A DNA stretch of 64,000 nucleotides from Escherichia coli. Lineage in GTDB: Bacteria; Pseudomonadota; Gammaproteobacteria; Enterobacterales; Enterobacteriaceae. The DNA is taken from the NCBI RefSeq assembly GCF_024502345.1, contig NZ_JALDNN010000001.1. One strand, 5' to 3'. Position numbers and translations under genes: made by a program. Under the pieces are notes generated by a model, which was not told the origin of the DNA, did not search any database, and was given only the letters and a program-made list of their open reading frames with translations. This document shows, one piece after another, positions 11,894 to 12,598 of this stretch. How positions within the stretch are numbered: position 1 is the first letter of the stretch; every line of letters starts with the position of its first letter.

Positions 11894-12598
11894 TTATGTC
11901 CTTGCATCATCTTTCGAATCTCCTTTCTTCTGTTTATTGTTGGCTGCATTTGCGTCTGGCTTGGACTTTGAGTGCTCGATGTCGTCCAGCCGCTCGATCT
12001 TGCGTGAGTTCGCCATGATCGTTTCTGCAGCCGACCGAAGCGCTTCAGGGTCGTTGTCGCTGCTGATGTCCGAACGCATCGCAATCGTGACTTTAGCTAC
12101 GGCATGCATCACCTGTTCTGCGTCATTGCCGTTCAACTGGCCATCCTCAAGTCCATCAACAAGCAGATCAAGAACGCGTCGGAACGCTTCGACAACTGGC
12201 GCGCTGCCGACAACGGCAAGCCTGTGGCTGATGACCCTGAGTTCATCAATGAGCGCAGAATCATGACATTCACGCTCCACGATTTCAGCAACCTTTTCGA
12301 TGACGCGCATATATGTGTCATGCTTTTGTTGAAAAAGAAGAACTTGCCCTTCTTTTCTTAACTCAAGCTCAGTCTGGCGATTGAGGAGCACAGCTGTCAG
12401 ATAGATAGTGACAGCTGCACCCAGGAACACTAGGATCATCTCTTGGGCAAAAGGAACGTTTTCACCAACAAAGTATAAGCCGCGGTAGGCTGCGTAACCT
12501 ACGCCCACTAAAACAATGGAAATTACCAGGTAGGCGACGTCCCTGCCGCGAAAGCTCGTCTTTACCGGTGGCTTCATGGGTCGGCCTTTCTTAATCAT
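11894..12598 (-). CDS. hypothetical inner-membrane protein (2 predicted TM helices + ~150-aa cytoplasmic domain)
   Basis: ATG at 12598 preceded by GGAG; track ORF starts at TTG 12610; hydrophobic segments VAYLVISIVLVGVGYAAY and MILVFLGAAVTIYLTAVLL; no family recognised. Confidence 0.6.
   Translation of the reverse strand: MIKKGRPMKPPVKTSFRGRDVAYLVISIVLVGVGYAAYRGLYFVGENVPFAQEMILVFLGAAVTIYLTAVLLNRQTELELRKEGQVLLFQQKHDTYMRVIEKVAEIVERECHDSALIDELRVISHRLAVVGSAPVVEAFRRVLDLLVDGLEDGQLNGNDAEQVMHAVAKVTIAMRSDISSDNDPEALRSAAETIMANSRKIERLDDIEHSKSKPDANAANNKQKKGDSKDDART

Follow-up and report, generated by a model that had tools for sequence, protein, structure and literature searches.

LHR2 was defined on the E. 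coli plasmid pFAM21805, where the gene that follows the MscS-like orfC was named orfD (Boll 2017, PMC5383660), and both orfC and orfD are included among the genes of tLST2, of which variants without the two have been described (PMC8290217; PMC12603250). In LHR2/tLST2, orfD lies between orfC (MscS) and trx-GI, in a gene set that comprises sHSP20, ClpK, YfdX, HdeD-GI, KefB, PsiE, an HtpX-like gene and DegP. In food plants, wastewater and hospitals, the tLST/LHR islands enable E. coli, Klebsiella, Salmonella and Cronobacter to survive heat and chlorine treatments. As tLST variants that lack orfD protect equally well against heat (PMC8407380; PMC12603250), orfD is dispensable for the heat-resistance phenotype, and in the tLST literature that we searched we found no function given for orfD and no experiment on it.

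Here we report on a copy of this gene in a window of E. coli DNA, by which we mean the whole stretch of 64,000 nucleotides that was analysed. The open reading frame occupies 11894..12598 on the minus strand (stop codon included) and encodes 234 aa from its ATG, 6 nt downstream of a GGAG ribosome-binding site (12605..12608, minus strand). The ORF list and the sequence bear out this gene call, which had been made in the first-pass annotation; the longest frame, 11894..12610(-), begins at a TTG start upstream. Between 11909 and 12598, a span of 690 of its 705 nt, the ORF shares 99.1% nucleotide identity with orfD of pFAM21805 (KY416992), where the match is a 230-aa hypothetical protein encoded between the MscS gene and trx-GI, and copies of 99.1% identity lie between a mechanosensitive-channel gene and trx-GI, within the locus of heat resistance, in replicons of Klebsiella, Salmonella (including Senftenberg), Enterobacter, Citrobacter and E. 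coli. The start codon coincides in the tLST2 gene, whose product likewise combines two TM helices with a helical domain. Judged by its sequence, the window ORF is orfD of LHR2/tLST2, a catalogued gene that carries no characterised function. The suggestion that the ORF was a candidate for undescribed function therefore gives way to a gene already catalogued, one known as an entity, and the window reveals no new kind of system.

The gene is rare, as a search with the ORF alone retrieved it from 38 of 72,556 plasmids, and about 13 records carry it among 5,426 complete E. coli genomes. A count of more than 2,500 plasmids obtained with 11470-13123 as the query was discarded, the rest having matched only the IS5 end or repM. 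The orf11 protein has 381 aa, and the two pseudogene pieces on either side of mscS-orfD in tLST2 match its residues 1-192 and 197-381; as these remnants are the halves of one protein, the reading of Boll that the cassette was inserted into orf11 holds, and we rejected the idea that tLST1 orf11 arose through a deletion that fused the 381-aa gene to the NDUFS4-like gene.

The plasmid-derived mosaic around orfD

The chromosomal flanks are E. coli-like, with patA, aer, yqjI and nfeF on one side and an ileX-type tRNA (17553-17628), mug and rpoD on the other. The interval from nfeF to the tRNA is a decayed integrative element, in which orfD lies between nfeF and the ileX-type tRNA, bearing out the location on a tRNA island that had been noted before; an Rfam scan of 10500-17800 returned this tRNA only. 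The plasmid-derived fragment is bounded on its left by a truncated P4-type tyrosine integrase gene (10761..11460, plus strand), of which the N-terminal ~230 aa are left, covering positions 7-168 of 413 of the NCBIfam integrase domain, and E. coli homology stops near 11462. The following 1.6 kb (11461-13091) are a mosaic with 99.6% identity to Enterobacter plasmids, among them pNDM-MCR10, and parts of it recur in Moraxella, Psychrobacter and Acinetobacter plasmids (Moraxellaceae RepM-type). At its left end a gene for a plasmid DNA-binding protein of the WP_016247066 type is represented by its initial 24 codons (11461..11532, minus strand); these 72 nt are identical to the beginning of that CDS in Enterobacter pNDM-MCR10. 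Downstream of orfD, 75 codons remain of the 5' end of an NDUFS4-like (Pfam NDUS4) gene (11683..11910, minus strand), whose ATG overlaps the end of orfD. This fragment, which ends at about 11686 where AT-rich plasmid DNA starts, is 100% identical to aa 1-75 of a 192-aa 'NADH dehydrogenase ubiquinone Fe-S protein 4' of A. ursingii pAURM-1, and PF04800 is assigned to homologous neighbours elsewhere. After it a pattern scan detected a terminator-like hairpin with a T-run (11629..11648, minus strand), the sequence of which is also present in the Psychrobacter and Enterobacter plasmid copies.

Upstream of orfD, a replication initiator gene of the Rep_3 type, repM, is represented by its 3' part (12663..13091, minus strand), which matches NCBIfam repM_Acin over profile positions 170-293 of 304 (E 1.4e-30); the gene is intact in a Moraxella osloensis plasmid. 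What had been mentioned earlier as an upstream Rep-like gene (the ORF 12663-13106) is therefore no more than the 3' end of repM, cut by IS5 at 13092. The IS5 element (13092..14286, plus strand), which has CTAA on both sides, terminal repeats at 13092 and 14275-14286 and a transposase ORF at 13124-14140, forms the right boundary of the fragment; past it, as in E. coli ATCC 8739, come lipoprotein genes of the YfjS/YafY type.

The block made up of orfD and the truncated NDUFS4-like gene has a GC content of 50-62% and is embedded in plasmid DNA of 28-37% GC, indicating that the plasmid-derived fragment is itself a nested mosaic. When the form with repM upstream is compared with the form with mscS upstream, the junction is found exactly at the orfD ATG, and the repM form brings its own GGAG, which in the window is part of the AT-rich plasmid-type upstream DNA. 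The position of orfD directly downstream of repM, with a spacer of 64 nt, recurs in three Enterobacter plasmids, the Moraxella osloensis plasmid and one further contig, and could be taken to mean that orfD works for the plasmid backbone, for example by controlling replication or by acting in partition or entry exclusion. We disfavour this reading and consider it very improbable, as the GC-rich block is foreign to the backbone, the junction with repM falls precisely on the start codon, and most orfD copies and all distant homologues are unconnected to rep genes.

Among the window ORFs of 6000-19000 there is no tLST gene, and mscS (orfC), the small ORF that accompanies orfD elsewhere and trx-GI are all absent nearby. 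A promoter scan upstream of orfD on the coding strand found no sigma-70-like site in the window, where site counts were not above those of shuffled sequence, and the promoter side of repM has been replaced by IS5. These features fit the possibility that orfD is an inert passenger in the window: a remnant, intact yet silent, that came in with a plasmid fragment by IS5-mediated recombination and is functionless in its host. Besides orfD, 11461-13091 holds gene pieces only (the 24 DNA-binding codons, the 75 NDUFS4-like codons and 3' repM), the same arrangement is absent from all 5,426 complete E. coli genomes, and the window copy carries the private substitutions Q6R and R111C. On the other hand the frame is intact with all invariant and near-invariant residues kept, a good ribosome-binding site is retained, read-through from IS5 or from within the repM remnant is possible and could escape a consensus scan, and the R111 codon is repeatedly variable among functional-looking orfD copies. 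We regard an inert passenger as possible, on the doubtful side.

Architecture and conservation of the OrfD family

The protein has two hydrophobic stretches by Kyte-Doolittle hydropathy, aa 21-43 and aa 51-73. An AlphaFold2 model built on 31 homologues (pLDDT 87.9) places the first, VAYLVISIVLVGVGYAAYRGLYF (12470..12538, minus strand), within a helix of residues 15-47, in agreement with hydropathy and translation, and the second, AQEMILVFLGAAVTIYLTAVLLN (12380..12448, minus strand), extends as one long continuous helix over residues 49-109. The bundle that follows is formed by helices 114-130, 133-149, 157-178 and 184-212; residues 85-200 are all-helical with a pI of 5.0, and the last ~35 residues are charged, of low complexity, and missing or different in homologues. 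Hydropathy and model thus agree with the two N-terminal hydrophobic helices, the helical, mildly acidic domain and the charged tail that had been described at first sight. As the N-terminal tail has six K/R but lacks acidic residues, and a loop of ~7 residues separates the two TM helices, the positive-inside rule predicts an N-in/C-in topology with the helical domain on the cytoplasmic side; OrfD is accordingly described here as a putative inner-membrane protein with a cytoplasmic C-terminal domain. A model of OrfD fused through a 30-residue linker to the NDUFS4-like protein was poor (pLDDT 51.5, pTM 0.31), its paired alignment of 14 rows being too shallow, and lends no support to a complex of the two.

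A word-indexed search retrieved 164 orfD homologues of 45-97% identity, and the 90% cluster of the near-identical clade comprises 711 member sequences. Outside the near-identical clade, the homologues are 45-60% identical and belong mainly to Alphaproteobacteria, and also to Planctomycetota, Chloroflexota and others; a full HMM search yielded 413 representatives at E ≤ 1e-3. The HMM search also detected relatives of ~300-335 aa that span the TM pair and the bundle at E 1e-28 to 1e-15, one of which sits among unrelated genes. For ten distant relatives a look-up of source names returned no name, or in one case 'hypothetical protein'.

In an alignment of 31 diverse homologues 23 columns are invariant, mostly clustered around TM2 and the juxtamembrane segment, and the window protein keeps all 23 of these residues together with all 38 near-invariant ones. 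The invariant residues of TM2 and the juxtamembrane segment include E53, G60, T64, T68, L71, R74, Q75, T76, L78, E79 and K82, and those of the bundle are scattered (Y96, E101, L120, R121, H125, S132, M164, M174, R175, N197 and D205). TM helix 2 and the following NRQTELELRKEG are the most conserved part of the family, and conservation is extreme from the end of the periplasmic loop through TM2 and the juxtamembrane helix (PFAQEMxLVFLGAVATIxLTAxLLNRQTELELRKEGRV). The traits of the stress-island OrfD family are present in the window protein, namely two TM helices, PFAQE...LNRQTELELRKEG, and a helical domain of ~120 aa that ends in NSRRMERLDD.

Pairwise dN/dS between distant homologues is 0.11-0.40 and, by this measure of their sequences, the family is under purifying selection. 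The 164 homologues, the 23 invariant columns and these ratios place the ORF beyond chance and, since the distant pairs are conserved as coding sequence, the lack of coding conservation that had been named earlier as a refuting outcome was not observed.

The first-pass annotation had been unable to place the protein in any family, and its view was upheld, as no Pfam, NCBIfam, PADLOC or PHROG model matches. A Pfam scan at E ≤ 10 returned only CLIC-like_N (E 0.51), an NCBIfam scan gave no significant family, and a sequence search of the PDB found no related structure, the best being Pex3 at E 0.05. The Pfam tag PF26566, precomputed on one homologue, was dropped when the profile scan did not reproduce it. 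A housekeeping relationship to NuoJ/ND6 was also rejected: NF005168 scored 17.2 bits (E 0.0037) where the cut-off is 154, and in the TM region only, so that clear homology to a housekeeping membrane protein, which would have spoken against the earlier view, was not found. The orfD family is a conserved and unnamed one.

At short range the picture of selection differs. We assembled a recent-divergence set of 15 near-identical copies (11 alleles, at least 98.9% nucleotide identity) from seven genera and the window, and found that recent copies diverge by amino-acid changes only: all 14 variable nucleotide sites are nonsynonymous, and codons 63, 111 and 126 were each changed twice. Under neutrality the absence of synonymous changes has a P of about 0.01-0.02. 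The adjacent mscS on the same replicons shows 5 nonsynonymous changes and no synonymous one, and as mscS shares the pattern, the signal is not specific to orfD. The nonsynonymous excess may rather concern the whole cassette after its move into new hosts.

Gene neighbours and the question of phage defence

We scanned one genome per species and obtained 76 orfD loci, of which the 54 with enough flanking sequence were counted. An NDUFS4-like gene lies directly downstream in 31 of the 54, a small ORF directly upstream in 31, a DUF308/HdeD gene adjoins orfD in 37 and MscS in 12, and at least one of NDUS4, DUF308 or MscS stands beside orfD in 41. The prevalent order is HdeD/DUF308, a small ORF of 63-71 aa, orfD and the NDUFS4-like gene, with genes that overlap or nearly touch, and the cassettes are surrounded by genes of the MscS, ClpK, Trx, KefB, rhomboid and NfeD types. 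In Roseibium the order is ClpK-MscS-orf11-DUF308-small ORF-orfD-NDUS4-rhomboid-NfeD-KefB, in Paracoccus orf11-DUF308-small-orfD-NDUS4-...-Trx-KefB, in Tsuneonella YfdX-DUF308-orfD-NDUS4-MscS-PsiE and in Sphingomonas orf11-DUF308-small-orfD. In a divergent clade of Rhodobacteraceae the order differs (MscS, orfD, then a DUF308 gene in convergent orientation), so that the association was re-created there independently. Among the copies from Moraxellaceae and tLST2, stop/start overlaps connect mscS, a 63-aa ORF that lacks annotation, orfD and the NDUFS4-like gene. Thirteen loci are stand-alone, as are Planctomycetota and Chloroflexota examples and several from Alphaproteobacteria, and at these stand-alone loci no defence genes were found among the neighbours. 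The association with the Rep-like gene or with defence genes that had been proposed for a survey was thus not what recurs: the recurrent neighbours are stress-island genes, and the link to Rep belongs to a secondary plasmid mosaic joined at the ATG.

Small membrane-anchored proteins of this kind had at first been suspected of phage exclusion or abortive infection, and OrfD could be imagined as a self-contained effector of the AbiC/AbiP or the two-TM SLATT/Csx28 type, carried as single-gene cargo of plasmids and islands, which upon triggering would permeabilise or depolarise the inner membrane. Two TM helices and a helical domain outside the membrane are also found in lactococcal AbiC (PMC13064643). 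A Foldseek search against AFDB50, in which family members rank first, matched DUF4760 proteins at E 3e-8 and ~310-aa entries named 'Phage abortive infection protein' at E 8.2e-8, 2.6e-6 and 2.9e-5 (TM 0.54-0.60, 21-22% identity). The ~300-335-aa relatives detected by HMM share both the TM pair and the bundle, and one of ~335 aa adjoins an integrase, restriction-endonuclease-like genes and Nmad3. Moreover the orfD frame is preserved at several tight junctions, on RepM plasmids it has acquired a ribosome-binding site of its own, and the 14 variable sites among its near-identical copies are all nonsynonymous.

These points are set against a series of searches without a defence signature. PADLOC at E ≤ 1 gave zero matches for OrfD and three diverse homologues, and nothing significant for ten of the ~310-aa relatives; Pfam at E ≤ 10 listed no putAbiC, DUF4760 or SLATT for OrfD. 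The DUF4760 profile was likewise not listed at E ≤ 0.1 for the 31 family members, none of which matched the SLATT profile, while SLATT_4 matched one of 29 distant relatives (E 7e-4). No copy of orfD was found by tblastn in 50,697 phage records, nothing significant in PHROG (best E 0.07) and no viral match at E ≤ 0.001 in a BFVD fold search. The neighbours within the orfD clade are stress genes rather than defence genes, the nonsynonymous pattern is shared by mscS (5/5), and the 'abortive infection' labels of the Foldseek matches are unverified database names. What stands of the earlier suspicion is therefore a set of fold matches with such labels (E 8e-8 to 3e-5) and the nonsynonymous excess, whereas PADLOC, PHROG, phage records, viral folds and neighbours speak against it, and we judge a dedicated phage-exclusion effector to be unlikely.

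The likeness to putAbiC/DUF4760 is one of fold only, with TM helices at the N-terminus and after them an all-helical domain outside the membrane, and is accompanied by the lack of a profile match and by identities of 14-31% to the Foldseek matches; the AbiC-like matches are in addition ~100 aa longer than OrfD, whose clade lies outside defence contexts. From SLATT/Csx28 proteins OrfD differs in having neither a profile match nor an association with nucleotide signalling or CRISPR, and no SMODS/SLOG or other nucleotide-signalling neighbours were seen in the orfD loci examined.

Proposed role and comparison with described systems

We propose, with a probability of roughly 0.55, that the window orfD is a stray copy of the tLST2 gene, that its product would be an accessory membrane component in envelope and ion homeostasis, and that its partners were lost in the window. 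From the neighbourhood, the conservation and the topology and fold, OrfD would belong to the inner-membrane part of the envelope and ion-homeostasis machinery of stress islands. The invariant TM2 face of small and polar residues with charged or polar caps suggests helix packing, and in the mechanism that we envisage the face G60-T64-T68, with E53 at its outer end and N73-R74-Q75-T76 at its inner end, would mediate self-association or packing on a partner membrane protein. Self-associated TM2 helices might line a conductance; alternatively OrfD might dock on MscS or HdeD-type partners. The cytoplasmic bundle could offer a site for soluble partners, for example the small protein or the NDUFS4-like protein, and through this coupling the flux of ions or solutes or the integrity of the membrane could be modulated under heat or osmotic stress.

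Whether OrfD needs its partners bears on this proposal. The gene has moved intact without them at least three times, into tLST orf11 (with mscS), into Psychrobacter-type plasmids and behind repM, and these partner-free transfers together with the stand-alone loci suggest that OrfD may act alone and not as a subunit. OrfD together with the small ORF might represent a new class of autonomous two-TM module, with a remote fold relationship to AbiC-like proteins, serving as a stress-gated conductance for ions or solutes or as a phage or plasmid exclusion effector co-opted by stress islands; if this were true, the repeated single-gene capture and the nonsynonymous divergence would reflect positive selection in new hosts. 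We hold such a module to be improbable, and note that the defence reading and the preferred reading, an accessory component of stress islands, may share a biophysical mechanism, namely membrane conductance. The family is a broad one centred on alphaproteobacterial stress islands, with HdeD/DUF308, the small ORF and the NDUFS4-like protein as fixed partners. On small plasmid fragments of the Moraxellaceae type, orfD has also reached plasmids and chromosomes of enterobacteria by itself.

With MscL-type two-TM channels OrfD would share a topological plan, N-in with two TM helices and a cytoplasmic helical bundle, to which OrfD adds a conserved small/polar TM2 face and the recurrent neighbours MscS and KefB. 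Pfam, PDB and fold searches gave no sequence or fold match of OrfD with MscL or MscS, and it is by analogy that we consider OrfD a candidate channel.

The closest relatives of the window locus are the described cassettes themselves. In the alphaproteobacterial ClpK-orf11-DUF308-small-orfD-NDUS4-rhomboid-NfeD-Trx-KefB islands orfD is 50-60% identical, and in the hdeD-mscS-(small ORF)-orfD-NDUFS4-like cassette of Acinetobacter, Psychrobacter and Roseovarius it is 93-99% identical. In both the Acinetobacter-type and the alphaproteobacterial cassettes the start of the NDUFS4-like gene overlaps the stop of orfD as it does in the window, where, unlike in these complete cassettes, orfD and 75 NDUFS4-like codons are what is left. 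The upstream side of the window orfD is RepM-plasmid DNA right up to the ATG, unlike the tLST2 and Acinetobacter contexts, whereas its last four codons and the downstream sequence have the Acinetobacter/Psychrobacter form, with the NDUFS4-like fragment in the place where tLST2 has the orf11 remnant.

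Reading frames on either side of orfD

An unannotated ORF of 63 aa (beginning MTRPKYTYEVERDFSNWDETIFERCLRDGFNVFGSGPTPILLRPEK) lies between orfC (mscS) and orfD of the heat-tolerance island tLST2, in the ~190 nt 5' of orfD on the reference plasmid pFAM21805 (L097), and is found in seven other orfD-bearing loci as well (L003-L006, L019, L021 and L022). It overlaps both neighbours, with its start in the mscS stop and its stop in codons 2-3 of orfD. Homologous ORFs of 66-71 aa precede orfD in the alphaproteobacterial islands. In the window the small ORF is absent.

At the other end, the stop of the window orfD (11894-12598, minus strand) is overlapped by the ATG of a 5' fragment of an NDUFS4-like gene (11683-11910, minus strand, 75 codons; Pfam NDUS4, complex I 18-kDa subunit fold). 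In most islands orfD is followed by a full-length NDUFS4-like gene of 180-195 aa, whose products carry the conserved motif DPVLEAxLESFPASDPPAW at the C-terminal end. On a Moraxella osloensis plasmid (L002) we noted a chimeric ORF of 211 aa (6445-7080 of that locus), in which NDUFS4-like codons 1-27 are joined to the sequence of an unrelated coiled-coil protein. The chimera is a further independent junction immediately 3' of an intact orfD.

The membrane region of the orfD product (aa 19-86) gave weak matches to profiles of NuoJ/ND6: NCBIfam NF005168 (E 0.0037, 17 bits) and, for one of 31 family members, Pfam Oxidored_q3 (E 0.006). These scores are far under the cut-offs and the matches probably reflect composition. 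That a match of this type should occur beside an NDUFS4-like gene is curious.

The island and near-identical copies

The island (10761-17628), which lies between nfeF and the ileX-type tRNA, is a decayed integrative element. Its integrase gene is truncated and distant from the tRNA; the other contents are IS5 (13092-14286), genes for YfjS/YafY-type lipoproteins (14411-15267), an element of the IS3 family (about 15749-16920) and a truncated gene (17043-17450). None of the complete E. coli genomes has the arrangement seen at 10500-13200. The assembly of an actinomycete, Streptomyces cinereus JCM 3040 (L023, contig BMPS01000020), includes a repM-orfD-NDUFS4' fragment of 99% identity, which is probably contamination; otherwise it would represent a very recent transfer.

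Among 15 near-identical orfD copies (the window, L001-L006, L019, L022, L023 and L097-L101) all 14 variable nucleotide sites are nonsynonymous, with two changes each at codons 63, 111 and 126, and the adjacent mscS shows 5 nonsynonymous versus 0 synonymous changes. Although the numbers are small, the pattern suggests that transfer into new hosts was followed by positive selection.

Distant homologues and related islands

In our homologue lists, thermophiles or metagenome bins from hydrothermal sites account for many of the distant orfD homologues: Albidovulum inexpectatum, Jhaorihella thermophila, Oceanicella actignis, Thermostilla marina, Tepidiforma, Thermonema lapsum, Caldithrix abyssi and Thermosipho japonicus. 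A tLST-like island is shared widely among Alphaproteobacteria (L025-L064; Paracoccus, Brevundimonas, Ochrobactrum/Brucella, Bosea, Rhodovulum, Aquamicrobium, Devosia and others), in the order ClpK-orf11-DUF308-small ORF-orfD-NDUS4-rhomboid-NfeD/SDH protease-Trx-KefB.
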